Program-made: the position numbers and the translations under genes
NCBI GenBank assembly: GCA_000002445.1
Contig: CH464491.1
Coordinates: 128,001 to 192,000 of the forward strand
Reading direction: 5' to 3'
Source of the DNA: Trypanosoma brucei
Lineage: Eukaryota
DNA: 64,000 nucleotides
The notes under the pieces: model-generated
Seen by the model: the letters and a program-made list of their open reading frames with translations, nothing else
The model's database searches: none
Told to the model about the DNA's origin: nothing
Part shown: positions 626 to 60,348 of the stretch, piece after piece
Position numbering within the stretch: the stretch's first letter is position 1
How the letters are laid out: each line of letters begins with the position of its first letter

Positions 626-651
626 GCCTCCTCCTCCTCCTCCTCCTCCTA
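626..651. repeat. (CCT)8 trinucleotide repeat
   Basis: cctcctcctcctcctcctcctcct in the 5'-proximal intergenic region. Confidence 0.9.
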
Positions 652-880
652 CCTTTTCATCCACTCCCCAGTGAAAAAAACTAATAACAAAAAAAAAAGC
701 ATCTGTATTTTCTGTAACAATAAAAAATTATCCAGCCCCTCCCTCCTTCTCTTCTCCTTCAGCCTTCGCCACTAACACAAAACGGTATTTTACCATTCGT
801 ACAAACGGTAAAAAGAATGATATTTGAAAAAAAAATTAAGATTAAAAAAGGACATTTTGTGCGATTGACTGCGAGGCATT

Positions 881-9466: not shown

Positions 9467-10765
9467 GTGCCGAAGCAAGAAGAAAAGAAAGAAGAAACGG
9501 AGAACGATAAGTATATACATGTGGCATAGTCTCAAGCATATAGAGATCTAGGAACAGGCGCTCATTTGAGCACTCTCCCGCGGAAATACATCCTTGATGC
9601 AAAAGGTCATACACCGCAGGGGACACATATCACAATTTGGCCAACTTCGTATGTTGTTGTTGTTGTTTTTGTTGCCGATCTTCTTCCAGCGAGGTAAGAG
9701 GAAAGAAAGTCCCTCACCTCACCTTCCTCCGCGCAGGGGCAGTATTTAAAATGAGAGTATTTGGCCGGCAAAGTAACCTTTTTCCTTACTTGCTTGTGTG
9801 TTTTCTTCTCTTCTGTCCTCTTCCTCATTTCCTCTTCACGCGTATCATTTTTTTTTCATTTCATTTCCTCTCTTCACGTGGCTAAGAGGAACAGAATATG
9901 TATATGCATATCCCCCACTTCATTCCTTTCCGTCCCTGCTTCTCCCTTGTGATCCTCTCTTTCATTTCTTTCAGCTCCCGCTGTGCCTTCCTAAGTATTT
10001 CTCCTCATTTCTACGTATTATGAAAGACTTTAAAAAAAAAAAAAAGACGCCGCACGCTTCTCCCATCCCTCCCCTCTTCGGGTTTCCCCTCTTCTTTATT
10101 CCCTTCCTCTCTTATTCGTTTCTCTTCTTCTCTCTTTTAATGCCGTTGGGGGTAAATGCAAATATGACACACGGGTAGCTCTTGCTTTGTAGTTGTTGTT
10201 GTTGTTTTCCCCATTGCCTGGTCACTCCACAAGTGGCGGCAAACCACCGACACGAAAAAAAAAGAGAAATTTTTTTTTTTTTAAAAAAGGAAACACGTAG
10301 GTAGGGAGCAGAGCAGTATTCTTTACTAGTGTTTGTTTTCCACAAATATATTCAAGAAGACGAAGAGAAAAAAAGGAGGAGTAATGACTGCTATAGTGGT
10401 GATGATAAAAATAACAAACCTTTTTCTCCTACCCACTTTTTTAAAAAAAATTTTCCCATCCCTTCGAATTTATATTCCGCATTCCTTTTGCCTTAATTGT
10501 CTGCCGTTGTTTTAAACTGTTTATTGTTTGTTTGTTTGCATTCGCCACAGGAAGGAAAAAGTAGGGAGACACATGAAGAAATGGAAAGAGAAAAGAAAAG
10601 AAAAGAGCACCAGCGATGCGAAGACAAACAAACAAAGGCGAGAAGAAACTAAAGAGAAAAAAAGATATAAAGATATAAAAAAACAAATAAATGAATTAAG
10701 TGGATCGGACAATCCAACGGCAAATAAAAAAACACGCACACACAAACACACACACACATATATAT

Positions 10766-10802
10766 AAACAAACAAACAAACAAACAAACAAACAAACAAA
10801 CA
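10766..10802. repeat. (AAAC)9 tetranucleotide microsatellite, adjacent to a (CA)n run
   Basis: aaacaaacaaacaaacaaacaaacaaacaaacaaaca, preceded by cacaaacacacacacacatatatat. Confidence 0.95.
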
Positions 10803-12115
10803 CAAAAAAATGAGGGTGCTTAACAAGAACAGAAGAAGTGGTGGACAAAATTAGAGAAAAAAAGTGGGAGCTCCCCTAACCAAGAGACTTACCATCTACT
10901 CTTCATTCATACGCAGTTCACGGCGAGGACACCGCAGCGCGGTAAGAGGTTGCCAACCAAAGACCCACGGACTAAGAATAGGTTTGAGAATCATACGGGT
11001 GGCAACAGCATTGAACAAGAAAAAAAAAATTTCATAAAGTCATGGCGGAGGGGGGGAATGGGGAGGGAGGACGACAACGGAGGAAAAATGCACACACAGA
11101 CATATACATACTTACAAGTGAGGGGAAAAGTTTGAAAAAAAAAGCCTAAAGCCATAGTAAATGGTGAAGATAAAGGAAGTCAAGAAAAAATGATAAGTGA
11201 TCAATTAAAGATGAGGCACTACAAGGAATTACGCAGCACGTAACACAAAATGTTATCAAACAGCTACATTTACTCTTCCCTCCACAACCTTTTTCCCACA
11301 TCCTTTTCCCCTCAACACGCACCCTCCTCCCCCGCCACCACCCCAAACCTCTTCTCGCTGCCCTCTATCCACCGCAACGGTCAAATCGTGAAAACTAAAG
11401 GTAAATGTTTGGCCTCATCCCGCACGCTTACAGGTAGTTCCTTTCCACAACATGAACCCGCCAAGAGGAATGCTGACTTGTGATAATCAAGTAGGAGGGT
11501 TAATAATTTGATCCACTTCCCTCTACATAAAAACACACACACACAGCCACAACAATTATCCTCTATTCCGCAGCTTGCAGTCCCCCACGTTCCACCTTTT
11601 TTTTTCTCTTTCTTCCTCTCCTTACTTCCTCATCCCCTCATCTTTGGTTCTACCCCGAACCCCTCCGTCCATACGCCGACTTCAAGTAGCCGATTTCTTC
11701 CCGCTATTTTCTTTTAATCCTTAATTACTTTCCTTCCCCCACGCTAACTCCACCTCCCTTCTTTTACACCTTTCTTCCTTTATTTTATTTGCATATTGAC
11801 ATCCTGTTCATTTGCCCTCACCCTCTCTTTTTTTTTTCCTTTTCTTTGTTCTCAGCATTTATCCTGTGAACGTTTTTTTTTGTCCAAATCGGCTTCCATT
11901 CGCACTCGTATTTCCTTTTTTGTCGCTCTCCCCCTTCCCCTTTGTTCCACACGCCTACGAACATGTGAACATGCACACAAACATCCTCTTCTCCTTCTCA
12001 ATCCTTACATCTCCCCTTCTTAGTACATACGCCAAGCCACCGCACAAACTACCCCAAACCACCCACACATATTTCCCTAAGCGGTTATTTCGCAACTCCG
12101 CACCGGACGCCTTTA

Positions 12116-15121: not shown

Positions 15122-15468
15122 CCATACCTAACGTTTAAAAAATTGGCGTGACTCGGGAAGATAATAACAACACATAAAGGAATAGTAGAGCATCACAAAT
15201 GGATAAAATCAAACGTCTAAAAATGCAAACTCCCTAGCACATGGCAACCGATAGTTTGGGGGGGGGGGAGTATCATTTCTTGTCATTTCTTTTGGCATAT
15301 GCCTGATTTCACCCCACCCTAGCACCCCAGACACGGTTGAAACTGGTCCACACCACCCATGCATGAACACACGTACACAAAAAAAAAACGTCTCATCCCC
15401 GGTGAGCCGCCGCAATGGATACGCCACAAACCAAATCATCCGGAAGATAACCCATTGCCCTCATAAAG

Positions 15469-46145: not shown

Positions 46146-46940
46146 TTACCTGAATATAATAAGATTCCTTTCACTATCAACAGACTTCTTCAGCTGCAGC
46201 TTTTCTTGTTCAGCGCTGTGGTCAACCTCAGCACAAGCTGGAACAAAATCCTTCGGTACTTTTAAAACTTTACCTGTTTCGAGCTTTATTTCTTTTGCTG
46301 GGCGTTTCATTTTGTTTTCCCAGTAAAGCTTCTCTTTCCGACGCTTCTCAAGCTCTTTTCGTTTGTTGTTTTCCGGTGGCTGAAAAACGATGGCATCACG
46401 ATCTCCGAAGAATAATTCATGGTAATGGCCGTTCGTTTGCTTCTTGGGGTCAAGCGAGCCGAGTACCGGGTTGTGCGGCATGGGTAGGGGTGTATTCGGA
46501 TCTATTGTGAACCTGATTATTGTACCATGATCACGACGAGGCGAGTGCTCGGTAGAAACCTCCACTCCAGCATCACGCTTCCCATTGGCCTTTCTTTTAG
46601 AAAAGGTAACGACGGCCTTTTTCTTATCAAGAACTTCCCTCATGTCGTCTGGAATCTTAGAGAAAATATGGTCTTCTTCGCGGGAAATATTCTCCAGTAA
46701 AGCAAGAGCATCTGAATGGAGAGAGACACCTTCTTTATCAGAAAGTGTTTTAACAGCACGAGAGACGAATGAAGTTACGTCGTCAATTCTTCTAGCATTT
46801 TCCCTGAATGCGCGTGCAGAAAGGATCCTTCGCATGACGTGTGCAGGGATATCAGCACCTGACGCGACAGCAGGGTCCTCCCCATTTTCATCCGCACTCA
46901 CTGAGCGGTTCATCTCGGGGCGCTCCTCCATCAGTTCCAT
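46146..46940 (-). CDS. Hypothetical basic/charged protein (264 aa)
   Basis: The track start is GTG; the first ATG is at 46940 (MELMEERPEM). Lys/Arg/Glu-rich C-terminus, KRKELEKRRKEKLYWENKMKRPAKE, looks nucleolar or RNA-processing. Confidence 0.55.
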   Translation of the reverse strand: MELMEERPEMNRSVSADENGEDPAVASGADIPAHVMRRILSARAFRENARRIDDVTSFVSRAVKTLSDKEGVSLHSDALALLENISREEDHIFSKIPDDMREVLDKKKAVVTFSKRKANGKRDAGVEVSTEHSPRRDHGTIIRFTIDPNTPLPMPHNPVLGSLDPKKQTNGHYHELFFGDRDAIVFQPPENNKRKELEKRRKEKLYWENKMKRPAKEIKLETGKVLKVPKDFVPACAEVDHSAEQEKLQLKKSVDSERNLIIFR

Positions 46941-48730
46941 ACGCAACGATCTTTTCGTTAACCTTTCTCGATTATATTTGAAGTATATCCTCAACCTAAC
47001 CCTAGAATAAATTGGTAAGGCACAAGAGCTGCTTAGGGCCACCGGTCACTCCCGTAACTGCAAGAACAATATACTAATATACACACGTACATGCACGAAC
47101 AAAAAGTTCTGTTGACACTTACAGTTGCTTAAAATACTAAAACCAAAGACTGGGCTCTAAACCCAAATGCACACCGCGCCTTCACATAGAAACGCAACAT
47201 TTTAAGCCGCTGAGCATGAACAAATGATTGTGTCGTCTCAACGACACATGACCGAAGAGGTGCGCAAGGACGTCCAATGACACAACAAAAGAGTGACCAC
47301 CACAATGACAATCGTTGGGCGGCGCGTTTAATTGCATTACAACTACGTCGGTACCTTCGCACTAACCATACATTTTAGTTCAAGCCAGAGAGATAACCGT
47401 GTAAAAGAAAATTTCCGTCCTTTTTCGTGACAAACGAGAGAAAACAGCCAAAGGCAACGACTTTACAGGGGAAAGGACAGGCGCTGACGAGACCAACAAC
47501 ACCTAGACATTATGCAGTACCACCGCTGGGTCCTGGTAGCACCCTGTAACCCAACCCTAGCCTCACATGAACTGTCTAAAGCACAAAAGAACGCGGACGT
47601 CACCAGTTCCAACATTAAAAGGCTATACAATAGGCTTTCAGTGATCTATTCCTATCACTTGTTTGTCTCTCTTGCTCATCCGTGGGGGAGGGGGGAACAG
47701 ACACCAATACACACCTTTCAGTCGCTATCGCGAGTCGGACTCAATTCTGCCGCTATCGTGCATGGTTAAAAGTCCCCCTGTTGTCCAAATCCCAATCGGG
47801 TTTCACGATTTCGTTGACACTGCGGCGCCGGAGGTGCAATATCTATTACACAAAGTAACGTCCCCTCCGCATCAGACTCATTCTGCGGTTATCTCATACC
47901 ACTTTTTCGCTCTAAGTCTTCGTTATTTTTTTTTATACTAGCTCTTCTTCTTTCCGTCTTTCTCCCTTTCGCGGGTGTGTGAGAGTAACTCACTGTACAT
48001 GGCCTTTCGTGTGCGATCGTTGCGGATAGTGCTCACGTTCCCAACCCCTTACACAGGGCTAAGAAAGCGCGATGCAAGTGGAGAGCGAGTGCGGGATTGG
48101 TGACACCCCTGTGCCGCGAGGAGAAGCTATGCAGGCTTTCGCGAAGTCGCATACATCGTACGATCGGCCCCTTTACAAAACATTGTACACGAGAGTGTTC
48201 GAACCAGCAGCGGTTCAGTAAGTGTTACAACGTTTCCTTCCATTCGTTGCGCCGGCTTATGCCTTCGAGTGTCGCGTGGAAGCGTTGGCCCCTTCACTAT
48301 CAAGTGCACGCTTGATCCGATTGCACGGTGTGGCGCGCACACCGGGCACACCGCCGCTGCCGCGGGCGCCCTCTCGGCACACGAAGTCCATCGGTGCCAG
48401 CTTCCTGCGCTGGAGCCTAAATCCCTTCCCACTGCCATATGCTCCGCAGCGCCCTCCGGAACAACCCCCTTGACTAAACACTCTCTGGCATATACTGAAT
48501 TATGCATCATGATCCACAAGTCTTTCCTCGACTTGACTATAACGCTTGATCACTCCGAGGGGCTGGATAATCACAACAGTTCCGCCCCCACCTTGTACAG
48601 TATCACGTTTCAGCTTCTTTTGTAAGGTGACTGGAGGGTGCACACCGAAGTTGGGCAGGCAGAGGTTGCGTTGGCACTGCCTCTGCTTACGGTTTTTTTC
48701 CAGGGGAAACAATTCACCGTTAGTCCGTAT

Positions 48731-49143
48731 CTTTTTTTTTTAATTCCCATCACAACACCATGTCGAGCAGCGGGTGCCAGCGCCTACGCCGTGTATAGCC
48801 CGTACGTTTCGTGCTAATCTCTTTCCTTGAGATAGCCCGGCGCAGTTCCACTGAATCCCGCGCGACGACGGGCTGGGATTCTCTTCCACATCACCGGACA
48901 GCAGCATCTTAGTGCGGATGATACTGCTGATGACACGCTGGCACGTGCCCAGGAACCGATAAATGAAAAACGGTGTCCCAGCATAACGCTGCTGATCCCT
49001 GTGCTGTATGATGCCGTAGCCGGAGCACAGCAGTGTTCCCCATGAAAGGAATACTGCTGGCTCTTGGCTTCCCCCGATGATACGGGATACTGGACCCTGG
49101 CACCACGTTGAGGTGGCCGGCATCACCAGGGCGTACGTTTCGT
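48731..49143 (-). mobile_element. Short ingi-derived element (RIME-like 5' fragment) with canonical Pr77, bracketed by a 12-bp direct repeat
   Basis: Minus-strand sequence from 49131 begins CCCTGGTGATGCCGGCCACCTCAACGTGGTGCCAGGGTCCAGTATCCCGTATCATCGGGGG (Pr77). It then matches the ingi 5' region including the 2A-coding segment (KMLLSGDVEENPSP). Homology ends exactly at 48812. The direct repeat cgtacgtttcgt sits at 49132-49143 and 48800-48811. An A10 run at 48731-48740 lies 60 nt further on. Confidence 0.75.
49055..49131 (-). promoter_or_regulatory. Pr77 internal promoter of ingi/RIME/L1Tc/NARTc elements
   Basis: Reverse complement of 49055-49131 matches the conserved 77-nt 5' sequence shared by trypanosome LINE/SINE pairs. 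Recognised from memory of the published Pr77 sequence. Confidence 0.75.
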
Positions 49144-49534
49144 ACGAGTCGACCCCGTACATTGAACCCTGTGATGTAGATGCGATATTGGAATACTCCT
49201 CGTTTTTGGCTGATCTACCTTGAGTGAGTCGGCACGCACACTGCCAGCTGTGAGTTCTCGGTTGGAAAAAGATCCTGGAAATGCATACGAAATTCGGGGA
49301 ATCGCCGCATACTGATGTTCATGGTGCATCCGCAGAAACAAATCCGTGCTTGCTCACCTTCCATATTTCCGGACTTGATTGACACCAGCCACGAGCTCTG
49401 CATTCACGCCATCTCGTTGTAATGCCAGCGTGTGTCAGAGTGTTTTTCACTGCCGTAATGTTCGTACTGATTGGTGGAGCTTGTGGCCATGTAAACCGAT
49501 CTTTGTTCGGGTTAGCCTCTCAGGCACAGCGGTG

Positions 49535-52500
49535 TTACTCGCGGGTTGATATTTCGCAGCAACCATTCACAATGCAAGGAGACGGCGATGCGCAAGCTCT
49601 CTTCCACCGTTCGCCAAGTGCCTCCTCTCGCGTCACGCCGCTGGAAGTGAATACGAACTGCAGCCCAATGCTCGCTTTCCTGCTTTCTATCTTTAGGACT
49701 GGTCGCCATAGCTCTCGTGCAGGCGGTTCGATAGCACTCAATGAGCCATTTGCTAGCGCAGTGGGGAGAGACGGCGAGTTGTTGAAAATCGACAGTTTCC
49801 TCATCGTTTTCTCCCGCATGGAGAGGTTCTTTAGTACACTCCGCGCACCAAGCTCCAGAACAATGCATTCCGCTCTGTAACTGCATGAGAGTTTCCCTGC
49901 TCCTGTCTTGGGTGCACAAATCAGCGTGTTGTTTCTATAGAGCAGGGCAGCTGCCCCGGACTTCTCACCGAGGGACACGGATCCATCAGTCCACAATTCG
50001 TAGTGCTCTCGTCGCGGTGGCTCCTTCCCCCTCCGTGCAAAATGCCGTGCAATCCACTTTTCGGAAGCCTCCCTTTTGACATCGTCAGGGTCATCAGCGC
50101 ACACAGGCTTTATCTGCGTGTGAAATATCGGTCGGCAGCTGTGGTGAAGCGTCGATGTCTCTAGTGGGTGCTCGCGTGGCTCAATGTGGAGGTGGGGGTA
50201 GAACCGCATGATGCGGGAATGTAAGACTCTGACTGGATGTTTGCTGTGGTATACTTCCTCAGCACTGCGCCGCAAACATCCGCCTCGTGACTCACACATC
50301 AGCATGAATTTCATGCTGCGCACAAGAGTGGCCGTCTTGAGTGGCAGGAGGTTTGCTTCCAGCAGAGAGTCCTCTTTGCGCGTCCCATGCTGTATGCCGG
50401 CTGTGATGCGACTGGCTTTGTGTTGTGCTGCTGCAAGGAGGTCGCGACTTCGTTTTGAAGCGTCCCAGTACCATACCTCAATGCCATGCATGGTGTGTGC
50501 CTGTACGAGTGCTAGATAAAAAGCTCTCAGCACTTGTCGTCTTGGCCCCCATGTAGAAGCTGAGATGGCTGCTATCTGCAGTAGTCGGAAGTCCATCTTG
50601 CGTCTCGTTTCGGCCGCATGTGTTGCCATCCCCTGCAGACTCTGGAATGTTACTCCAAGAAGCTTTAGTGTCCTGTCAGCTCCTATTCTTTTGCCGTCGA
50701 GTTGTAATGTAAGGGAGTGCCGCTCTATACACCCGAAGAGTGTGCACTTTGTTTTCGCTACGTTGACAGACATGAAGTACTCTTTTGACCACTGTAACAC
50801 CACGTTTAGACCGCATTGTAGTGTGTGGTTGATGACATCCCTCTCTGTGTGCCTCGCAAGTATCGTTAGGTCGTCTGCAAAGAATCCGTGCTGCAGTAAC
50901 GGCACTTCTGCAAGGCGTTGGCTCAACGAGTTCATGACAATAATGAACATGATTGGGCCAAGGACAGTTCCTTGTGGCACTCCTCGCTCAAATGTTCTGC
51001 TTCTGGAAAGCTTCTCCTTGAATCTCACTCTGCCAGTTCGGTTACTCAGAAATGATACGCACCACTTCACAATGTGGGGTGATACCTTCATTCTGTGCAT
51101 TTCCCTCGCAATTTTGTCGTGGTCTACTGTATCAAATGCCTTCTCGTAGTCAACGAATACAGCACCCGTACGAGATTGGTGCGTGGGGCGGCAGAGGGCA
51201 GCGCGGACGTGCAGGAGTTGTTCGAGCGTTGAGCATCCGGGGCGAAAGCCTGATTGCTGCGGCGTCAGCTGGGACTCAACAGTGTCTCTAAGTCTCGCGG
51301 CAATTATGCGCTCCATGACTTTGCAGAGACAGCTCGTGAGCGTCACAGGCCTGTAAGAATCGAGGTCCTCCGCCTTTTTTCCGGCCTTCAGGATGGGGAT
51401 GATAACACCAGTCTTCCATGCAGGCGGCACGACTCCCGTTCGTAGGCTCTCATTGAATAGCCTCAGAACAACATTCAGCGCTGTTCTACCGAGATGTTGC
51501 AGTGCCTCGTTGTATAAGCAATCAGGTCCGGCTGCGGATCCACTCGGTAGCAGTTTGATCGATCTCCGTAGTTCAGCCATCGTGATGGGACTGAACTCAC
51601 TCGCTATCGTCTTTATTGGTGCCGGTGGGTGTGAGTCGGTGTGCCTTCTTGCGCGGGACGAGTACAGTTTAATGAACCTCTCAGCTTGACGGTAGTCCGT
51701 GATGGCCGCGTTATCAACAAGTACAGCCGGTGTGGTTAGTGGTCGTGGCGCATATACCTTCTTGAAAATGTGCCAACTGCAGCGGTCTGACACCGCAAGT
51801 CTGGAGTATAGCGTGCTCCATCTCTTCTTTGTGATACGGTCCAGGATCTGCTTACGCGTGGCTACCAACTTTTCCCCTCGGTGGGAGGGTCCGCATCCAG
51901 CGATCTCTTCATCGAGTTTCGCGAGCTCAGGTGTCCAATGTGGTGACGTTGCTCTGCAGCCACGGGGGACGGAGACCTTCGTCGCAATGCGGATGGCGGA
52001 GCTCAATTTCTGTTCCAGGGTGTTGACGTTCTTCTTTCTACCAATTTTCCTGCAGTACTCGTCAACCTTCAGACGGAAATTCCTCCAGTCAGCTTTTAGC
52101 CATGCGTACATGGGCTTTCGAGGCCGCGGGCAGCTCAGCGCATCTGTGTCGTCTCCAACGATAACATCGAAAAATATGTGATGGTGATCGCTATTGGGAG
52201 AATGAAGCGATGTCCACGTGTACACTGTGCAATTCCTTGACAGTGTCACATCAGGGGTGGACTCCCCGTGGTGGCGCGCGTTCCTGGTGCACTCACCAGT
52301 GTTGCAGACCAGAAACTGGTTGTCAATGCGCCACTGTGTGAGGGTTTCACCCTTGGTATTTGGTGGGCTCGCGCGATCCGATGCCAACGCGTGTGCGTTA
52401 GCGTCTGCACCGATGAGCTGTGAACTTTCAGTCGTCAGAAGCGTATCTAGGTCAGTTGCCGTGAAGGTGTGTTTTGGTGGGATGTATGCCGACGTGACAG

Positions 52501-52843
52501 TCAGCGCCGTTCCACGTGCAAGGTGAATTGTTGCATGCACTTGTTCAATGCGACCAATAACATGCATACCGGTCTCGACTGGTAGGTCCTCCCTCACTAG
52601 TATTGATACACCACCTCCTTTGCAGTTACGAGCTATTCCGTGATGTTGGTAGCCAGCAACGCTAAAGCAAGCCGCCTCTCCAGGCGTCATCCTTGTCTCG
52701 CTCAACAGACAAAAGGCGATCCGCTCATCAACAAGGGTTTTGTGGAGTGCTAATCTCTTTCCTTGAGATAGCCCGGCGCAGTTACACTGAATCCCGCGCA
52801 ACGACGGGCCGGGATTCTCTTCCACATCACTGGACAGCAGCAT
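49535..52843 (-). CDS. ingi-type non-LTR retrotransposon ORF: 2A peptide - AP endonuclease - reverse transcriptase (1102 aa, C-terminal part frameshifted)
   Basis: ATG at 52843, MLLSSDVEENPGP (2A StopGo motif). APE/EEP motifs (LSETR, GADANAH, SDHHHI). RT motifs (QSGFRPGCST, FVDYEKAFDTV, RGVPQGTVLGP, FADDLTIL). The frame breaks after 49535, and RT/RNaseH-like sequence continues in other frames (49123-49919). Confidence 0.9.
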   Translation of the reverse strand: MLLSSDVEENPGPSLRGIQCNCAGLSQGKRLALHKTLVDERIAFCLLSETRMTPGEAACFSVAGYQHHGIARNCKGGGVSILVREDLPVETGMHVIGRIEQVHATIHLARGTALTVTSAYIPPKHTFTATDLDTLLTTESSQLIGADANAHALASDRASPPNTKGETLTQWRIDNQFLVCNTGECTRNARHHGESTPDVTLSRNCTVYTWTSLHSPNSDHHHIFFDVIVGDDTDALSCPRPRKPMYAWLKADWRNFRLKVDEYCRKIGRKKNVNTLEQKLSSAIRIATKVSVPRGCRATSPHWTPELAKLDEEIAGCGPSHRGEKLVATRKQILDRITKKRWSTLYSRLAVSDRCSWHIFKKVYAPRPLTTPAVLVDNAAITDYRQAERFIKLYSSRARRHTDSHPPAPIKTIASEFSPITMAELRRSIKLLPSGSAAGPDCLYNEALQHLGRTALNVVLRLFNESLRTGVVPPAWKTGVIIPILKAGKKAEDLDSYRPVTLTSCLCKVMERIIAARLRDTVESQLTPQQSGFRPGCSTLEQLLHVRAALCRPTHQSRTGAVFVDYEKAFDTVDHDKIAREMHRMKVSPHIVKWCVSFLSNRTGRVRFKEKLSRSRTFERGVPQGTVLGPIMFIIVMNSLSQRLAEVPLLQHGFFADDLTILARHTERDVINHTLQCGLNVVLQWSKEYFMSVNVAKTKCTLFGCIERHSLTLQLDGKRIGADRTLKLLGVTFQSLQGMATHAAETRRKMDFRLLQIAAISASTWGPRRQVLRAFYLALVQAHTMHGIEVWYWDASKRSRDLLAAAQHKASRITAGIQHGTRKEDSLLEANLLPLKTATLVRSMKFMLMCESRGGCLRRSAEEVYHSKHPVRVLHSRIMRFYPHLHIEPREHPLETSTLHHSCRPIFHTQIKPVCADDPDDVKREASEKWIARHFARRGKEPPRREHYELWTDGSVSLGEKSGAAALLYRNNTLICAPKTGAGKLSCSYRAECIVLELGARSVLKNLSMREKTMRKLSIFNNSPSLPTALANGSLSAIEPPARELWRPVLKIESRKASIGLQFVFTSSGVTREEALGERWKRACASPSPCIVNGCCEISTRE

Positions 52844-52975
52844 CTTAGTGCGGATGATACTGCTGATGGCACGCTGGCACGTGCCCAGGGACCGACAAAT
52901 GAAAAACGGTGTCCCAGCAAGACGCTGCTGATCCCTGTGCTACATGACGCCGTTGCCGGAGCAAAGCACTGCTCC
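52749..52975 (-). repeat. Dispersed direct repeat: ingi 5' region (2A-coding), about 95% identical to 48812-49039
   Basis: Aligned by eye: ctaatctctttccttgagatagcccggcgcagtt[a/c]cactgaatcccgcgc[a/g]acgacgggc[c/t]gggattctcttccacatcac...tgctgatccctgtgct. The two copies lie in the same orientation 3.9 kb apart. Confidence 0.9.
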
Positions 52976-53380
52976 AAACAAGAGGAACAATGACGTTCCG
53001 TCTGTGCAGAAAGCGAGTTTATGGGCCTTGGGGCCGCGGTGGTGTGGGTGATGTTTTCGTTGAATGAAAAGGCCCCGCCGCCTCATTCGCGTTGCGCGGG
53101 AGGAAGATCAAACCACCTCAGATGTGAATGTTTTTGCTTACTGAAATAAAGCTGTGCTGTGCCAGTCTCGGCGTGTCCGGTGTTTGCGCACCTGAAACTC
53201 CCCTTTGTGGTGCAATATCTTCTTTAGGGACTGTTCGAGTATGTCGGGGTTTTCAGGGACAGCGCGAACCTACTGCGCGCGGTGGATTGGGCTCATTTTC
53301 CAAGGCGGAGTGGTGCCGGTTCTTGGATGCACGGCCGGTCCGCAGCTGCGAGTTCGTCAGCGCCAGCCCTTCGGACCTCA

Positions 53381-53390
53381 GGGGGGGGGG
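53381..53390 (+). promoter_or_regulatory. G10 homopolymer tract on the sense strand of the plus-strand transcription unit
   Basis: Ten consecutive G (tcagggggggggggaag) about 3.2 kb upstream of eIF5A. G-runs on the transcribed strand have been reported at T. brucei pol II start regions. Confidence 0.4.
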
Positions 53391-54049
53391 AAGTTAGGGC
53401 CTGTTTCCCTTTCTAAATCCCCTCAACTACTGTTGGTTAAAAGAATGCAGGGAGTAGAACCGGAGGGGGGAAGCGTCGGGTCCGCCCCGCGTGAAAGCGG
53501 CTGGGGCGTACGACAGGCTTCGCGAGCTGGGGGCGGTTGTGTTTCGCGTGGGTCCGTTATATTTACCCCTTCCGTTTGTATCTCCACTAAAGAGAAAGTG
53601 GTGTCCCGATCCACACTGTATTGCTTCGCCGTGTGCAATTGCTGTGCCGCTGGGGAGTGCCTTACGGCGTCGTGGGACCGACGTGGCTCGGGGACTTAAG
53701 GTGCGCCCTTAAACACCGTGGCTGCTGCCTGGTCATGTGTTTATGCTTTGCGATGTGAGGCATTGTGGGGTCGGGCCTTTATGCGGACCCCTGAGGCGTT
53801 AGTATGCTTGTTTCTCTCGATCCTCTCTGTTTGTGCGCGTATGTTTTCCCCCTCCATGTTTTAGGGAGGGCGGTGGATGGGGAGATGTCACTGAACAACG
53901 TAGCTGTTGATTATTGCTGCTATGTTATTTTATTTTCCTAAGGCCACATTGTGGTGCCTAAATACCTGGGTTATCGTCACGCGCATTTATCATTTTTCTA
54001 TTTAGCCTTTATAGCTGATCCTTCTTTCAAATACATTTGCTTGTTCTAG

Positions 54050-54053
<4 letters not shown>

Positions 54054-54110
<57 letters not shown>
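54054..54110. repeat. (TA)28 dinucleotide microsatellite
   Basis: 57 bp of perfect TA repeats, seen directly. Confidence 0.98.
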
Positions 54111-54113
<3 letters not shown>

Positions 54114-56549
54114 TGCAAATGGCATCTTGGTGCACTTGTTCCGTTGCCGGGGTGATTATTTTCAGAGCGTATATACACCGCTTGTGGGTGATCGCGGTTT
54201 CAAGCCGGTTTGCTTTTGTTTTTGAGGACATGTATTGGGGGTGTTACCACTTTTTTGTTAATTGATATTGTGCACTTTTTTGTTTCGGTAAAAAGAAAAA
54301 AAATGACAGTGATATTATTTTTTTTTTTCGCTTACCTTCTATACATATATATATACTTGTCGGTGATACGTGTTTGTGTTTGGTGCTGATAATGCTTGCG
54401 CTGGGAGTTTCTTTTGTTGGTGTTTGTTTTCTCTGTAAATAAGATCGGCTTTCATTTCACTAATAGTCCTTGTAATATATCTTTTTTTTCTTTTTTTTCT
54501 AGGGGGCCATTAGTGCATGTAAGGAGCACTCTTAAGGGAACTTTTGTCAGCAGAATAATCAATGGTAAGTGTTGTACTTTGGCCATTGCGAGTGCGCTGG
54601 ACTTTGGGAGCTGGTACTGATACTTCTGTCTTGACGGATTCAAAAAAAAGACAAAAAACTTCACAACTTTTTCCGAAAGAAAGTGAAGTTTATCCTCTCA
54701 AATCAAGTGCGGATCTGTCGCTTTGCACACGCGCTGGTTGACAATAGATCGATGAGTGACATGTCTGATCACCCTGTGGTGCGGGTCTTTATTAATTGTC
54801 TTGCTCTTTATTGATTCATCTGTGCTTTGGCGACGTAGGCGGAGTAGAGGATTGCCAATTCCGTCCTTTGGAATGGTTTACCGTCTTATTTTATTTTGTT
54901 AACCCAGTTGTCTTATGTGTAATCCTTTATCGGCCGGTGCGAGCTGTGGGTGGGATGCCGATCGTTTTTTCTTCTGCAACGGCAGAGAGTAGTGCTGATG
55001 GATATCGGTAAAGGGTGTTTGCTGCGTTGGTGAAGTGAGTATGTCGATGGAAGGGTACGCATATAATTAATATATCTGGTGCTTTTTCTTCTTATTGAGT
55101 AGCTTTTGAGAGCTCGGGACGGTAAAGTTAGTTGCCGCATTAGGTGTATGTTGTTCTGGTTAATTTCTGTTCAGATCCTTACGGTAAGCACGAAACCATT
55201 ACACCTGGTATGCTTTAATCCGTTAATTCAGGCGGTTCCACATTTGGTTCAATCACTGAAATACAGCTGAATTTTTAAATTCTTGTTTTAAAATTACCTC
55301 ACTTAATAAAAGGAAGGAAATGACACATCAAAGTAATGGAAATGCTGCATTGTACACCTGTGGGTGAGCTGATGAAGTAATAAAATATGGACCCGCGCGT
55401 TAAAGCCGTTTGTTTCCATCAGCAATGCCCTCGTGTCGGTTGTTTTCCCTTTTTGTCTTTCCATTATTCCACTGTAAGTAGTTTGCTTGAATTACGGTTT
55501 GATAAAAGGAACTGATTCACCTGGGTGTCTGCCGTAGTCGGAAGGGTGGGCGGAAACGTTGCTGTTTTCTGTGAGGTAGTTAACTCTTTGCTGCTATAAT
55601 CTTTACAATACCGTTTTAAGATGTGTATGTTATTTTTAGGTGTAGTTTCCTGGCATTTTTGTGGACAGATGATGTTTGTCTACGTTTATGGAACCAGTAA
55701 GTAGGAAAAGATGTATGAATTAACAAAAGGTATTTGTGCATCAGTGACTAGCGTTTTTTCCTCGTGTACAGTAATGTCTCTCTGGTACAGTTATTAATTG
55801 TTAGAGCGCGGTGCTGTGATCTCGGGTGTAACAACTGAATCTTTTTTTTGTTTCCTTGCTGAAGTGTATGGCTCTTTCTGGAATAACACATATGTAATTA
55901 TGCCATTGCTTACAGTGGAAGTAGGGGTGGCTAACATAATGATTTGTCCTTTTGATAACACTGTATTGAAGGAAGAATTATCGCTCTTTTAGTTTTCCTG
56001 TTCTTTGTCTGTGGTCTTGTAAGTTGGTGATATTGTGTATTAAGCTTTCAATTTTTCTTTATAATTTGCAGTAGGCAGTTGTCTCTTGCGGTCATTTGGC
56101 CTACGGTATAGGATGTGTTAAGGTGTAGCTCACGTAAGTAAAGTTCATGATCGAATTCTTTTTGATTTTCGTTTTCACACATTTGATCCTTAAAGACTTA
56201 CACATGCCCTCTTTTTCATTATTATTATCTTGTTCATGAGTTGATGCGACATTGGTGGGTAGGGTTAGATGACCTTTTCTCTTTGACGCAATATGTCGCG
56301 GTTGTTACGTTCGCTTAGACACCAACGTCTCTTGTTTGTTATTTATGTATATTTGGGTACAACCGTTTTTCATTCGTTTCCCTTTGTCTTATAGTAACTT
56401 CATATATATATATTAATTTTAACGAGTTTGTATTTTTGTTTTCCTTACAATTATTGTAACCTACCATTCGGTTTATCACCCATACTATTATTACCCTTAT
56501 TTTTCTTTCTTGATATAGACCTTGAGTTCTTCTGCTTTAAATCTACACA

Positions 56550-57050
56550 ATGTCTGACGATGAGGGACAGTTTGCCGAAGGCGGAGCGCAGGTGGGCTCT
56601 CTGACGTATCCGATGCAGGCAGGCGCTCTGAAAAAGGGCGGCTACATTTGCATTAATGGACGTCCGTGCAAGGTAATCGATCTTTCAGTGTCAAAAACTG
56701 GAAAACACGGTCATGCAAAGGTGAGCATCGTTGCCCTTGACATTTTCACCGGAAACAAGATGGAAGATCAGGCCCCCTCAACTCACAACGTTGAGGTGCC
56801 CTTCGTGAAAACTGCAACGTACAGCGTACTGGACATTCAGGAAGATCGTGAAGACCCCAGCAAGCCAGCTCACCTTTCGCTCATGGACGATGAGGGTGAG
56901 ACTCGGGATAACCTGGACATGCCTCCCAACGCGGAACTCGCAGGGCAAATCAAGGAACAGTTTGATGCAGGAAAGGACGTTTTGGTCGTTGTTGTTTCTG
57001 CTATGGGAATTGACCAGATTCTCAGTTTCAAGAATGCAGCTGAGCGATAA
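56550..57050 (+). CDS. EIF5A: Eukaryotic translation initiation factor 5A
   Basis: Hypusination loop [11 protein letters not shown] within [12 protein letters not shown]...[36 protein letters not shown]; 166 aa. ATG at 56550, preceded by a polypyrimidine tract (56494-56512) and an AG at 56517-56518. Confidence 0.93.
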
Positions 57051-57393
57051 GGCCGTAAGTTCTAGGTTAATATATTTTTTTCTTTATCTTTTTCTATACA
57101 ATGTCTTAAAAGAAGAGTATGAGACACCCATGTTCTAAATTGTTAGCTGATTTTGTCGAGAATAGGGGTTATGTAGCCCCGTGTCCGTGTTTGACGTTGT
57201 TGATGTAACTCTCGTGCTAAGAGGTCATGAAAATTTGCCTCTCCCAGCTTCTCTTTGTGCTTTACAAACACATACACACACAGAAAAAAAAGGAGCGCAT
57301 AACGAGCGGTTGTATATATGTATGTGTACGTACACAATAAGGATAGAGGAGAGACTAGGAATACTTTCTTCACGAGGATAAGGCCCTTTTAAT

Positions 57394-60348
57394 ATGACAA
57401 GCAAACATAGTGCTGTATTAACTATAACCGAAAAGGGTGATTGGAGAACTGCGAAAAATGGCGAGAAGGTATGGCGGTATATGGTGCAAACGGCACCGAC
57501 GATGAGAGCTCGCTGCAGAAAATGTTCACAACCTATTTTAAAAGGTGACCTGAAATGGGGAACTCCTATACGTCATTCCCATGGAGCGTATGGGTGGATT
57601 ACCGCCTGGCATCATGTGGGGTGTACGAGAATTGCTGAACGTAAGGGCTTTAGTGACATAGTACATGGAATAGACTTACTTCCACCTGAGAAACGGGCGC
57701 AGGTCGTTGCGGAGGTGACATCCGACTCGATGCCTGAGCATTTACTACCTTTGAATCCTGACGATTTAGTAAAAAAACCTCTTCTTCCCGAAACTGAAGC
57801 ACCAGCTGAGTTGCTAAGACCACTTCTTCGTTATCAAAAGGAGGGTCTTGGCTGGATGGTGTCACAGGAGTTGTCTCAAGTTAAGGGGGGAATATTGGCT
57901 GATGAAATGGGTATGGGTAAAACAATCCAGATGATCAGTCTTTTTCTCGCCCGTCGCCTCGTGGGACCTACACTGGTTGTTTGCCCAGTTAGTTCAATGC
58001 TCCAGTGGGAATCTGAGGTGAAAGACCATGTGGTGTCCGGTTCCCTTTCGGTGGTAGTGGTGAGCCGTACCAAAAATGTGAGAAGGGATGATATTCAAAA
58101 TGCTGATGTGGTTTTGACTACGTATCCGATGCTCGAACAGTCTTGGAGGGAGCTAGTCAACAAGAAAAGAGTTCCATGCCCTTACTGCCAACAGCTTTAT
58201 TTGCCGCGGCAGCTTGTTGTGCACAATCGGTATTTTTGCGGGCCTCATGCAAAGAAAACTTCTAAACAGGCGAAGCGTGAAAAACGACAAGGTGGCACTG
58301 GTTCTTCTCCCACTCGAAAAGTTCAAGCAAAAGAAACGATTATGAAGGGGCTTCGTACGTTGCGTGTCGATGTTGACGATAACGCGGAGGAAGGGGAGGA
58401 TTCTGTGTTCGAGGAAGGACCACGGGGTGTTGTTGGACCAATGGGCTTGTATCGTGAGCTCATGGTTGAGGCCGGGCGCAAAGTTAGGAGCCGTTGGGAC
58501 CCCGCGTACGTGGGAAGTGACAGCAGTGGGGATACCAACAATTCTACCACAGAAAGTTCCACCTCATCGGAACGGGATGACTCAGAGGAGGTGTTGTCGA
58601 AAGAGGAGGTGGCCGATGACAAGCTTAGCTCGTTCCGGTGCTTGCACTGCGGGTTTCAGTTGCTACGATACCCGTTTTGCCCTAAGATAGGGCAATGTCA
58701 CGTTCTCTCTGATTATATGAAACAAATAATTGAGACTGACGACGGTAGTGACGGCGTTGACCTATCTCAATCAGTTTTCCACTCGGTAACCTGGAGTCGG
58801 ATTGTTCTGGACGAAGCTCATAGAATAAAAGGTAGCAACACAAGTACGTCAAGGGCTGCCTTTGCCTTGGTAGGTGAGCACAGGTGGTGCCTCACGGGAA
58901 CCCCTCTACAAAATCGTGTAGGGGATGTGTACAGCCTGGTTCGTTTTCTACGGTTGGCGCCTTATGCAAGGTATTATTGTGGAACTGAGGGGTGCTCCTG
59001 CTCGTCCTTTTCTCATCCATTTTCTGGAAATGATTTACGACACTGTATATTTTGTGGTCATGGACCGGTCCAACATTATGCTTATTTTAATCGCCATATT
59101 TTAAATCCTATAATACGTTATGGTTACGTTGGCGACGGCAGGCGGGGAATGATGATGCTCTCTAATGAAATCCTCCAGAAGTGTATGCTGAGGAGGACGA
59201 AGGCCGAAAGAGCAAGCGACTTGCACTTGCCGCCAATGACCGTGGAAACGTTCCAAGTAAAGCTGACCGATGAGGAGAGAAGCTTCTATGAGTCGTTGTA
59301 CAAAAAAAGCACTGCCGCTTTTGATACCTTTGTTGAGAAAGGAACGGTGCTTCATAACTATGCCCACATCTTTCAACTTTTGAGTCGTTTGAGGCAGGCT
59401 TTGGATCACCCACTGATTGTCATTAATTCTATGAATGTCGGTGGCTCGTCGTGCTCGAAGGGGATGTGTGGAATTTGCACTGAGAGTTGTGGAGAGAACT
59501 CAGTACAGGTTGACCCTTGTAAGCATACCTTCCACCGGATTTGTCTTTCGCAATTTGTCGAAAGCCAACCTTTAAAGGAATATAATTGCCCTGTGTGTTA
59601 TGTGGCTATCAACATCGACCTGCGGAGTCTACACTCAGGGTGGGACGAAGACGGTGCCCAACCTGTTCTTCCTCCAGAGTTAGTTCACTCAGACAACGAA
59701 AGCGATGAAAACAACGTTGAGGAGGAAAGTAAAGGGAGGAAACTAGATGATTCTGCGGAGGGGAAATCCGCTCGAGCGAGATCGGTCAAGAAACGAGGCA
59801 TACTCTCCCGGATTGATTCATCAAAACCTCTTCGAGGGACGAAACTGGATGCCATAACAGAATACATTTGCAGCATTCCAGAGGAGGAAAAGGTAATTGT
59901 GTTTTCTCAATTTGGGGATACTCTGGACCTCATTCAGTTGTGGTTACAGAAGGTGAAAGTAAAGACGGTGAAACTTGTGGGGTCGCTCATGTTATCGCAG
60001 CGGCAAGCGGTTCTCAGGGCTTTCTTGCATGATAAGAGCGTTCGAGCCATCCTTATTTCTCTCAAGGCCGGTGGGGAGGGTTTAAATTTACAAATTGCTA
60101 ACCATGTTGTACTTGTTGATCCTTGGTGGAATCCCGCGGTTGAAATGCAGGCGGCGCAGCGAGCCCATCGTATTGGGCAGACGCGACCCGTTCGCGTGGT
60201 CCGTTTTGTCACTGAACGTTCTGTAGAGGAGCGCATGTTGGAGTTACAAGAAAAGAAGATGCTGGTTATTGAGGGGACTATCGATGGTAAGGTAAGTTCG
60301 CTGCAGAGTCTTAGCGAGGATGATCTTCAGTTTCTGTTCACGAGGTAG
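57394..60348 (+). CDS. SNF2-family DNA-dependent ATPase with N-terminal PARP-type zinc finger and embedded RING finger (RAD5/RAD16-like)
   Basis: zf-PARP-like N-terminus (ARCRKCSQPILKGDLKWG...GWITAWHHVGC). SNF2 motifs LADEMGMGKTIQ (I), DEAHRIK (II), LTGTPLQN (III) and helicase-C SLKAGGEGLNLQIANHVVLVDPWWNPAVEMQAAQRAHRIGQTRPV. C3HC4-type RING CGICTESC...CKHTFHRICL...CPVC between the helicase lobes. Confidence 0.88.
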   Translation: MTSKHSAVLTITEKGDWRTAKNGEKVWRYMVQTAPTMRARCRKCSQPILKGDLKWGTPIRHSHGAYGWITAWHHVGCTRIAERKGFSDIVHGIDLLPPEKRAQVVAEVTSDSMPEHLLPLNPDDLVKKPLLPETEAPAELLRPLLRYQKEGLGWMVSQELSQVKGGILADEMGMGKTIQMISLFLARRLVGPTLVVCPVSSMLQWESEVKDHVVSGSLSVVVVSRTKNVRRDDIQNADVVLTTYPMLEQSWRELVNKKRVPCPYCQQLYLPRQLVVHNRYFCGPHAKKTSKQAKREKRQGGTGSSPTRKVQAKETIMKGLRTLRVDVDDNAEEGEDSVFEEGPRGVVGPMGLYRELMVEAGRKVRSRWDPAYVGSDSSGDTNNSTTESSTSSERDDSEEVLSKEEVADDKLSSFRCLHCGFQLLRYPFCPKIGQCHVLSDYMKQIIETDDGSDGVDLSQSVFHSVTWSRIVLDEAHRIKGSNTSTSRAAFALVGEHRWCLTGTPLQNRVGDVYSLVRFLRLAPYARYYCGTEGCSCSSFSHPFSGNDLRHCIFCGHGPVQHYAYFNRHILNPIIRYGYVGDGRRGMMMLSNEILQKCMLRRTKAERASDLHLPPMTVETFQVKLTDEERSFYESLYKKSTAAFDTFVEKGTVLHNYAHIFQLLSRLRQALDHPLIVINSMNVGGSSCSKGMCGICTESCGENSVQVDPCKHTFHRICLSQFVESQPLKEYNCPVCYVAINIDLRSLHSGWDEDGAQPVLPPELVHSDNESDENNVEEESKGRKLDDSAEGKSARARSVKKRGILSRIDSSKPLRGTKLDAITEYICSIPEEEKVIVFSQFGDTLDLIQLWLQKVKVKTVKLVGSLMLSQRQAVLRAFLHDKSVRAILISLKAGGEGLNLQIANHVVLVDPWWNPAVEMQAAQRAHRIGQTRPVRVVRFVTERSVEERMLELQEKKMLVIEGTIDGKVSSLQSLSEDDLQFLFTR

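Follow-up and report, generated by a model that had tools for sequence, protein, structure and literature searches.

A decayed mosaic ingi-type retroelement within an ancestral divergent strand-switch region of Trypanosoma brucei chromosome 11

Flanking genes and the strand switch

The window, a stretch of 64,000 nucleotides, belongs to T. brucei TREU927 chromosome 11, and Tb927_11_v5 positions are obtained by adding 127,996 to the window position. The coordinate offset to the v4 tables of Kolev et al. (2010) was confirmed by the AG and pyrimidine tract directly 5' of position 54444. Using ORFs of 150 aa or more that were not nested in a longer ORF, gene orientation was found to switch from the minus strand (up to 47042) to the plus strand (from 56550). 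On the minus side, exact protein look-ups placed GenBank proteins from EAN79032 (881-2053, minus) through EAN79053 (46146-46940, minus), which makes 22 proteins provided that the numbering runs consecutively; the first-pass annotation, with 23 consecutive minus-strand genes, had come close. The first gene of the minus polycistron is Tb11.50.0001 (EAN79053.1, 264 aa, conserved hypothetical; 46146-46940, minus; exact protein match). Its mechanically called ORF reaches 47042, and its poly(A) site, as given in Table S13 of Kolev et al. (2010), lies 369 nt below its stop codon. On the plus side, exact protein matches were obtained for eIF5A (Tb11.03.0410/Tb927.11.740, EAN79055.1; 56550-57050, plus), the gene that opens the plus polycistron in the annotation, and then for EAN79056 and EAN79057. 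Expression of Tb11.50.0001 and eIF5A was given as about 15 and 101 RNAs per cell, respectively (Kolev et al., 2010).

The flip in orientation that had been proposed for 47043-56549 is thus borne out by the ORF layout and by the exact protein matches on both sides. Table S14 of Kolev et al. (2010) lists Tb11.50.0001 (minus) and Tb11.03.0410 (plus) as the first ORFs of 'Divergent' pol II units, and the same study states that 5'-triphosphate reads are enriched at every divergent unit. Together with the hallmarks of Wedel et al. (2017) on the plus side, these data uphold the earlier assignment: the interval, at about 175,039-184,545 in Tb927_11_v5, is a divergent pol II start region from which two head-to-head polycistrons depart. 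The locus had already been catalogued as such and is a real, ordinary and known start region. It shares with other T. brucei divergent pol II start regions (Siegel 2009; Kolev 2010; Wedel 2017) the head-to-head 'Divergent' units, a GT-rich plus coding strand, G10 at the 5' edge and noncoding spliced transcripts upstream of the first plus gene, but differs from them in its gap of 9.5 kb and in a minus side with a short GT-rich patch only.

Composition and transcripts on the two sides

The composition profile and GC skew showed the plus strand to be strongly GT-rich (0.57-0.64) from 53.0 to 56.5 kb. This 3.5 kb block (53001-56500, plus) was taken as the plus start region and leader. Its likely 5' edge is a unique, G-skewed and GC-rich (0.58) segment (52993-53800, plus) with a G10 run at 53381-53390. 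The segment has no similarity to ingi, to the remaining window or to the outgroup loci, and T. b. gambiense and T. b. equiperdum share it at 98% identity. Wedel et al. (2017) describe a GT-rich coding strand and a run of ten Gs (G10) as hallmarks of start regions, and their Dataset EV1 ranks G10 as the top coding-strand 10-mer in the 5' fifth of start regions; the plus side of the locus carries both. Between 53 and 57 kb, 20 EV1 10-mers were found on the plus strand versus two on the minus strand, in a scan that is unspecific because ordinary low-complexity intergenic tracts score too. A (TA)28 microsatellite (54055-54110) was the source of the sole Rfam hits, which were weak and below threshold.

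Two novel spliced transcripts are listed on the plus strand in Table S7 of Kolev et al. (2010): Tb11.NT.12 (54444-55192, plus; v4 182444-183192), which is polyadenylated, 748 nt long and present at about 2.9 RNAs per cell, and Tb11.NT.13 (55313-56460, plus; v4 183313-184460), with 1147 nt and about 1.0 RNA per cell. An AG lies directly 5' of 55313, and the small ORFs of Tb11.NT.12 gave no Pfam match. These transcripts show that plus-strand transcription is underway by 54.4 kb, which the G10 run and the GT-rich block from 53.0 kb fit. The other plus-strand feature of 47043-56549 is the annotated ORF Tb11.03.0420 (EAN79054.1; 53241-53699, plus), a singleton protein cluster with no Pfam match and no detectable transcript in Table S2 of Kolev et al. 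(2010). It is the sole annotated plus ORF of the interval, and no hidden plus-strand gene, which would have spoken against the first-pass annotation, was found inside 47-53 kb.

On the minus side, a patch at 46751-47500 is GT-rich in the minus sense (plus-strand GT 0.39-0.43). Read directly, its minus strand shows candidate splice acceptor sites and pyrimidine tracts ahead of the first minus gene, and the patch is likely to represent the proximal part of the minus start region. It is short (450-750 bp) and almost free of the 10-mers of Wedel et al. (2017). No novel transcript is listed between 47043 and 54444 in Table S7 of Kolev et al. (2010), for which reads from repeats may have been discarded. 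The flip in strand composition that had been placed near 53.0-53.7 kb stands for the plus side, where GT-richness begins at 53.0 kb, but not for the minus side, where minus-type composition stops at about 47.5 kb and 47.5-53.0 kb is near neutral.

The mosaic element and the Pr77-bearing fragment

Retroelement-derived DNA in minus orientation spans about 47.65-53.0 kb, i.e. about 5.4 kb or 57% of the interval, in agreement with the earlier statements that retroelements fill most of the region and are oriented with the minus unit. The ingi core (49866-52992, minus) corresponds to ingi nt ~78-3204 at 91-98% nucleotide identity, as determined by blastn and an identity profile against canonical ingi. 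Most of an open 1102-aa ORF (49535-52843, minus) lies inside it, with endonuclease and reverse-transcriptase domains and a 2A-like DVEENPGP motif. In these respects the core resembles Tbingi, a 5.2-kb autonomous non-LTR retroposon; unlike Tbingi, the element at the locus lacks Pr77, canonical sequence beyond nt 3204, poly(A) and a Pfam RNase H match. The part missing from the 5' end is exactly the 77-nt Pr77: ingi homology begins at about nt 78, and the 100 nt upstream are no closer to Pr77 than shuffled sequence (p=0.50). The long element as an ingi carrying Pr77 was accordingly rejected.

Past nt 3204 (window 49865), identity to canonical ingi drops abruptly from 91-98% to about 45-50%. The adjoining degenerate segment (49144-49865, minus) was assigned by protein similarity to the RNase H region of ingi (41% amino-acid identity against nt 3199-3489, E=8e-19; 39% against nt 3772-3960, E=3e-9). 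It contributes the final ~110 codons of the 1102-aa ORF and gave no match to the RNase H Pfam model. A second, DIRE-like 3' remnant (47650-48800, minus) is a GC-rich block with weak protein similarity and about 45-50% nucleotide identity to ingi, the outer (3') edge of which is uncertain between 47.5 and 48.1 kb; positions 48808-48410 are colinear with ingi nt 4084-4482 (24.7% over 146 aa, E=2e-5). Neither a canonical 3' half or end, a RIME-type 3' half, poly(A) nor a convincing target-site duplication was found for the long element. From 49865 to about 47650, the weak colinear ingi protein similarity (24-41% at the amino-acid level) and the loss of coding capacity are those of a DIRE. Full-length DIREs keep the 5' Pr77 (PMC1874656), whereas the 5' part here is a young ingi-like core without it, and for this reason the element is regarded as a mosaic and not as a plain DIRE. 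It is a decayed mosaic in which an ingi core without Pr77 is fused to a degenerate ingi-related 3' part; it may have arisen by gene conversion or recombination.

Inserted inside the degenerate remnant is a fragment of 319 nt (48813-49131, minus) that matches ingi nt 1-319 with 93% identity (blastn against canonical ingi and RIME). It is flanked by an exact 12-nt direct repeat, CGTACGTTTCGT, the two copies of which (48801-48812 and 49132-49143) are the only ones in the entire window. About 2.2 kb separate the fragment from the first minus-strand start codon downstream of it. The fragment carries the single Pr77 match in the 64 kb (49131-49055, minus; 73 of 77 positions identical to canonical Pr77), which was not detected by any Rfam model. 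With RIME, the 0.5-kb non-autonomous partner of ingi, the fragment shares the common ingi/RIME 5' end with Pr77 and a direct repeat of the usual duplication length; in contrast to RIME, it follows ingi to nt 319, beyond the RIME junction at about nt 250, and has neither the RIME 3' half nor poly(A). Its classification as RIME was rejected. The 'ingi/RIME pair carrying its own Pr77' of the first-pass annotation must consequently be replaced by a large element without Pr77 and a short ingi fragment that holds the only copy. Like the dual promoter/HDV-like ribozyme of L1Tc in T. cruzi, this Pr77 keeps CGTG (+25 to +28) and, upstream of it, CCACC (+16 to +20). The L1Tc promoter is active in T. cruzi, whereas equivalent ingi/RIME constructs are reported to be inactive in T. 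brucei.

The retroelement and transcription initiation

The same gene pair flanks a retroelement-free gap in T. theileri (955 bp) and T. cruzi (about 1350 bp), and in both species the Tb11.50.0001 orthologue adjoins the strand switch. The two gaps share one layout, AC-rich on the left, GC-rich in the core and GT-rich on the right. Initiation therefore predates the insertion, and the divergent strand switch at this locus is ancestral. At 9.5 kb, against about 1 kb in T. cruzi and T. theileri, the annotated gap is unusually long because of the retroelement, and the enlargement is due mainly to the decayed mosaic. The element is also structurally polymorphic among T. brucei subspecies: the orthologous 1102-aa ORF is broken in T. 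b. equiperdum, by a stop at codon 74 and a RIME insertion, and in T. b. gambiense part of it is deleted. A true 502-bp RIME with a 12-bp duplication, ATTGAGTGTTAT, is present at the locus in both of these subspecies and absent from TREU927. Overall, the data are probably best explained by an ancestral divergent start region that carries decayed and polymorphic ingi-family DNA as a passenger.

A less probable but real competitor is that both units start at one bidirectional core at about 53.0-53.8 kb, with the minus polymerase reading through the retroelement in sense. The GC-rich core of the T. theileri and T. cruzi gaps coincides exactly with the switch in composition, the only comparable unique segment in T. 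brucei is that at 53.0-53.8 kb, and initiation was described as bidirectional at all start sites (Kolev 2010). If this were so, any role of the Pr77 RNA would be that of an HDV-like ribozyme that cleaves the read-through transcript, and element RNA would feed RNAi; L1Tc Pr77 RNA is such a ribozyme, T. brucei LINE ribozymes are reported to be active, as unpublished work, and ingi RNAs are siRNA sources. However, the GT composition of the retroelement block is neutral to slightly plus-type and not minus-type, the T. brucei segment has no sequence homology to the outgroup cores, and the DNA between two divergent start regions was found to be a low-activity zone (Wedel 2017). The lack of a listed transcript between 47043 and 54444 also counts against read-through, within the limits noted above for repeat reads.

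That the Pr77 of the 319-nt fragment has been co-opted as an internal promoter for pol II, adding to or setting initiation of the minus polycistron, is unlikely. The idea of a retroelement-borne promoter for polycistrons is not new, having been published for Pr77 (PMC1874656, PMC4035085, PMC4748587), and the first-pass annotation had raised it for the minus unit. What stands of it is the orientation: the Pr77 faces the minus unit with both motifs intact, and the L1Tc copy of Pr77 functions as a pol II promoter in T. cruzi (PMC1874656) and binds nuclear factors. Against it, the large element lacks Pr77, in T. cruzi and T. theileri the strand switch operates with no retroelement present, and Pr77-derived RNAs are unspliced (PMC1874656). 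Moreover, as Garcia-Salcedo (2003) is cited in PMC1874656, no reporter transcription was obtained in T. brucei from the first 500 bp of ingi, from RIME A or from the first 55 bp.

It is more doubtful still that the block interferes as a repressed, siRNA-targeted and SPARC-guarded island, insulating the start regions or dampening the minus unit. Loci of ingi are siRNA sources enriched in H3.V, and ingi RT/RNase H transcripts close to promoters are derepressed on loss of SET27. The extra RIME of T. b. gambiense and T. b. equiperdum, in opposite orientation, forms an inverted repeat of about 250 nt with the Pr77 fragment. TREU927, however, has no such inverted repeat, and both flanking genes are expressed at the levels given above. 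A centromere-type domain has next to no chance of being right: the likeness of this GC-rich, retroelement-filled strand switch to the T. cruzi chromosome 3 centromere, which Obado and colleagues are said to have described as a GC-rich strand-switch domain of degenerate retroelements, is superficial, the domain is just ~6 kb, and the window has no AT-rich tandem repeat array, its tandem repeats being only (TA)28 and a 21-nt T-rich pair. That Kolev et al. (2010) list the locus among ordinary divergent start regions also argues against it.

The retroelement is thus most likely a passenger and not a promoter. Plus-strand initiation would start in the GT-rich segment of about 53.0-54.4 kb that has the G run. 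Minus-strand initiation may be dispersed over the proximal part from 47.1 to about 49 kb (a 450-bp GT-rich patch and the decayed 3' remnant), a placement that we give an even chance. The retroelement would have inserted into accessible chromatin devoid of genes, at the two start regions or between them, and been tolerated there; it would be dispensable for initiation, with Pr77 at most a minor contributor. Staneva (2022) proposed that retrotransposons insert preferentially into open start-region chromatin, and found promoter-proximal retrotransposon transcripts to be normally repressed. The k-mer table of Wedel implies six to eight RIME/ingi copies co-oriented at the start-region 5' edge versus none or one antisense, and this co-oriented excess at start regions could reflect function rather than tolerance.

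Coordinates, flanking genes and strand composition

The window was assigned to chromosome 11 of Trypanosoma brucei brucei TREU927 by exact protein look-ups, and coordinates were anchored using tables of upstream open reading frames (uORFs) and of poly(A) and splice sites. The SNF2/RING gene Tb927.11.750 has two overlapping uORFs in its 5' leader (window 57318–57392), as listed in a ribosome-profiling supplement (PMC4210626). They lie at Tb927_11_v5 185314–185388 and 185318–185377, matching window 57318–57392 and 57322–57381, respectively; window position x is therefore Tb927_11_v5 x+127,996, and the interval under study (47043–56549) is Tb927_11_v5:175,039–184,545. The GeneDB v4 coordinate is the window position +128,000. 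This offset fits the poly(A) sites of eIF5A and Tb11.50.0001, and an AG with a preceding pyrimidine tract is found directly upstream of both mapped published splice sites.

The reversal of gene orientation described in the first-pass annotation was confirmed: long non-nested ORFs are all on the minus strand up to 47042 and on the plus strand from 56550. The ORF layout and exact annotated-protein matches on both sides define divergent polycistrons, that is, two units transcribed apart. Exact matches on the minus side run from the leftmost gene matched (881–2053, −; EAN79032.1) to a 264-aa conserved hypothetical protein (46146–46940, −; EAN79053.1); by these accessions the minus side would hold 22 annotated proteins, one fewer than the 23 genes counted previously. 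The plus side carries eIF5A (56550–57050, +; EAN79055.1), the SNF2/RING 'DNA repair protein' (57394–60348, +; EAN79056.1) and PP2C (+ side; EAN79057.1), all exact protein matches. Within the interval, the annotated ORF Tb11.03.0420 (53241–53699, +; EAN79054.1) is a singleton protein cluster and appears among the annotated ORFs with no detectable transcript in Table S2 of Kolev et al. (2010; PMC2936537).

The single change of strand composition placed earlier near 53.0–53.7 kb holds for the plus side, where the plus strand is GT-rich from 53.0 kb (GT content 0.58–0.64 to 56.5 kb), but minus-type composition already ends at about 47.5 kb. The plus strand is AC-rich (GT-rich for minus-sense genes) only up to that point, with a peak at 46.75–47.5 kb (plus-strand GT 0.39–0.43), and composition is near neutral over 47.5–53.0 kb. 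A tRNA scan found no tRNA in the whole window, no Rfam family was matched in it at the gathering threshold and an E-value Rfam search of the interval returned merely (TA)n chance matches. A centromeric strand-switch domain was considered and rejected, as there is no AT-rich tandem repeat array and the repeats consist of (TA)28 and a 21-nt T-rich repeat only.

Transcription units were taken from Kolev et al. (2010; PMC2936537). Their Table S14 classes two units here as 'Divergent', Tb11.50.0001 to Tb11.03.0990 (−) and Tb11.03.0410 to Tb11.53.0001 (+), and their text describes every divergent unit as enriched for 5'-triphosphate reads. The gene IDs Tb11.50.0001 (−) and Tb11.03.0410 (+) were mapped onto the window; the assignment of initiation is at the level of the unit and carries no positions. 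Within the interval, Table S7 of the same study adds Tb11.NT.12 (window 54444–55192) and Tb11.NT.13 (window 55313–56460), both novel transcripts of the plus strand. The plus unit is therefore transcribed from no later than 54.4 kb, which would place its start at 53.0–54.4 kb. Two features fit this placement: a G10 run at 53381–53390 (+), and 20 plus-strand compared with 2 minus-strand occurrences, over 53–57 kb, of the 10-mers in Dataset EV1 of Wedel et al. (2017; PMC5579346). In that data set, GGGGGGGGGG leads the coding-strand 10-mers of the first (5') fifth of start regions by a wide margin (132 vs 17). The scan used Wedel's 157 coding-strand 10-mers; it supports the plus side, but is non-specific and also flags A/AC-rich low-complexity intergenic tracts. 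Dense minus-strand clusters of this kind, overlapping A-rich or AC-rich tracts, were observed at 2000–5000 and 10000–11000. A G11 run is present at 15258–15268, within the minus polycistron. Kolev et al. (2010) give no internal start at any of these three places.

A decayed mosaic retroelement

Retroelement sequences were compared with a canonical 5,254-bp ingi (L004:3513–8766) and a canonical 502-bp RIME, both from T. b. equiperdum. The long element, on the minus strand, matches ingi nt ~78 to 3204 only (window 52992–49866), at 91–98% identity per 150-nt bin; past nt 3204 the identity drops abruptly to ~45–50%. Downstream of this core, weak protein similarity colinear with ingi reaches ~48.4 kb (41%, E = 8e-19; 39%, E = 3e-9; 25% over 146 aa, E = 2e-5), so that the 3' part is a degenerate ingi-related (DIRE-like) remnant. 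Of the domains expected, an ORF of 1102 aa (49535–52843) retains endonuclease and reverse transcriptase (RT) alone; its RNase H and C-terminal parts have degenerated, and the Pfam RNase H model gave no match in this ORF. At the start of the ingi ORF (window 52810–52833) a 2A-like motif, DVEENPGP, was noted, which reads DVEENPSP in the copy carried by the short element (48874–48897).

The first-pass annotation described an ingi/RIME pair carrying its own Pr77 promoter. In the long element, however, homology begins at nt ~78, and the first 77 nt of ingi, which are exactly Pr77, are absent; a degenerate Pr77 sought in the 100 nt upstream of the core scored no better than shuffled sequence (p = 0.50). 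The 3' half of the canonical RIME has no match in the window, and the long element is without a canonical 3' end. The flanks of the whole composite share a single 12-mer, GGTGCAATATCT at 47833/53209, for which we estimate ~0.1 matches by chance. It abuts no poly(A) and no element end, and was treated as a chance match and rejected as a target-site duplication. None of the features of an intact Tbingi (Pr77, a full-domain ORF, and a canonical 3' end with poly(A) and a 12-bp duplication) was found. The retroelement is thus a decayed mosaic of which the long component lacks Pr77. Both ends of the core (49866 and 52992) are sharp identity breakpoints (95% to ~45–50%), and one coincides exactly with the Pr77 boundary. 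The pattern of identity suggests that a young ingi may have replaced part of an old, degenerate element, by either gene conversion or recombination.

The short element, which had been classed as a RIME, is instead ingi nt 1–319 (49131–48813, −), with neither the 3' half nor a poly(A), and is embedded in the degenerate remnant. A RIME combines ~250 nt from the 5' end and ~250 nt from the 3' end of ingi and ends in poly(A), whereas the fragment is 5' ingi only; it shares with RIME the 12-bp target-site duplication, being flanked by exact 12-nt direct repeats of CGTACGTTTCGT (48801–48812 and 49132–49143). Target-primed reverse transcription usually keeps the 3' end, which makes a 3'-truncated insertion with a perfect duplication (48801–49143) unusual. 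Possible causes are truncation of the RNA template and template switching. The fragment carries the sole Pr77 in the 64-kb window; it agrees with canonical ingi at 73/77 positions and keeps both CGTG (+25 to +28) and CCACC (+16 to +20) intact. Pr77 RNA has been described as an HDV-like ribozyme, and its activity in T. brucei is cited as unpublished. No Rfam match was obtained for Pr77, and a simple fold of its RNA gave z = −1.1, by a method that is uninformative for a pseudoknot.

Syntenic loci and subspecies versions

T. theileri (L007) and T. cruzi (L011 and L013) have the strand switch at the syntenic position and share the flanking orthologues. To one side lie those of the 731-aa, 355-aa, SCAMP and 264-aa proteins, and to the other side those of eIF5A, SNF2/RING and PP2C. 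Between them is a gap of 955 bp in T. theileri and ~1350 bp in T. cruzi, with the same layout in both, AC-rich on the left, with a ~300-bp GC-rich core, and GT-rich on the right. Ingi-family matches were absent from these gaps, and the T. brucei gap matched them in low-complexity sequence only. The proposal that a retroelement-borne promoter might contribute to minus-strand initiation called for comparison with syntenic loci lacking ingi, and there the switch exists with no retroelement. The locus is therefore an ancestral divergent start region for which the retroelement is probably not needed. Copy number of eIF5A varies, with four tandem copies in T. theileri (L007:10001–12750), two in one T. 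cruzi assembly (L013:10001–11234) and one in T. brucei. T. vivax (L009) has lost synteny on the left, and upstream of its eIF5A lie GC-rich DNA and a Tvingi fragment; this strand switch may have been colonized independently. The GC-rich stretch (0.60–0.65; L009:1–7600) extends for more than 7 kb, and both of the ORFs called in it (335 and 301 aa) seem spurious.

The T. brucei subspecies have the mosaic element in common, so it is old, yet it is structurally polymorphic. T. b. gambiense (L001:4154–4656) and T. b. equiperdum (L002:2711–3213) carry an extra canonical 502-bp RIME in the plus orientation, absent from TREU927, at the equivalent of window 49731–49742; its 12-bp duplication is ATTGAGTGTTAT (minus-strand reading). 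It lies ~600 bp from the minus-oriented Pr77 fragment, and in both subspecies the two make up an inverted repeat (~250 nt, ~94–96% identity). The repeat may form a hairpin and supply siRNA in these two subspecies. Ingi loci are sources of siRNA. T. b. gambiense has in addition lost window 49832–51378 (~1.5 kb of the ingi core), and the T. b. equiperdum orthologue of the 1102-aa ORF has a stop at codon 74, so the open frame is specific to TREU927. Its disruption or deletion in sister subspecies led us to reject a domesticated gene. The polymorphism among subspecies gives no hint of constraint on the element.

Placement of initiation and role of the retroelement

In the arrangement that we favour, the plus start region would open at the G-run and GT-rich edge near 53.0–53.4 kb. 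The minus unit might initiate in a dispersed manner in the proximal 47.1 to ~49 kb, a placement to which we give an even chance. On the minus side a GT-rich coding strand is seen only at 46.75–47.5 kb, and Wedel 10-mers are few. The retroelement would then probably be a passenger that is tolerated, lying between the two start regions or at their upstream edge. The accumulation of retroelements at strand switches is textbook knowledge in trypanosomatids. Staneva et al. (2022) suggested that the open chromatin of start regions draws insertions, and found that loss of SET27 derepresses promoter-proximal ingi-derived transcripts.

The main rival is a single bidirectional core at 53.0–53.8 kb, from which minus-strand transcription would read through the entire element. 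The unique, GC-rich sequence at 52993–53800 shows no relationship to ingi, and its T. b. gambiense and T. b. equiperdum counterparts are 98% identical to it. We consider this arrangement unlikely. Promotion by Pr77, as put forward in the first-pass annotation, is harder to credit and we judge it improbable. That Pr77 on strand-switch retroelements drives polycistronic transcription has been proposed before (PMC1874656, PMC4035085, PMC4748587), and the experiments behind the proposal were done on L1Tc of T. cruzi. In T. brucei, according to PMC1874656, which cites Garcia-Salcedo et al. (2003), no CAT expression or transcription was obtained from the first 500 bp of ingi, from RIME A or from the first 55 bp. 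The idea is kept alive by the Wedel coding-strand-enriched 10-mers (Dataset EV1, PMC5579346), nine of which (9/157) are ingi/RIME sense sequence (nt 182 and 5167–5244 of L004:3513–8766) and none antisense. These nine occur 6–8 times on the coding strand in the 5' fifth of start regions and 0–1 times on the noncoding strand, which implies that 6–8 RIME/ingi copies lie co-oriented at the 5' margin of start regions, compared with 0–1 in antisense. The searched passages of PMC5579346 make no mention of retroelements. The sense bias could also arise without any function, from an ingi endonuclease whose target preference differs between strands.

Slightly less probable again, and in our view very doubtful, is that the co-oriented remnant marks, and its Pr77 fragment helps to set, the 5' boundary of the minus start region, sense RIME/ingi copies at start-region edges being generally retained because they contribute to initiation or directionality. 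The sense and antisense counts of the Wedel table hint at such a role. Were this true, the halves of an ancestral 1-kb bidirectional promoter would have been split by 5.4 kb and would still work independently.

The strand switch is real, ordinary and already known, and the identification of its elements in the first-pass annotation was partly wrong. The value of the locus as a discovery is small, given that the switch is in the published list of divergent units and the idea that Pr77 drives polycistrons is in print. T. cruzi and T. theileri have the same gene pair around a 1-kb gap free of retroelements, and the T. brucei subspecies differ in the version of the element that they carry (an additional, inverted RIME, the loss of 1.5 kb and a disrupted ORF). 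The locus thus offers a clean test case for whether a strand-switch retroelement is a neutral passenger or affects initiation.
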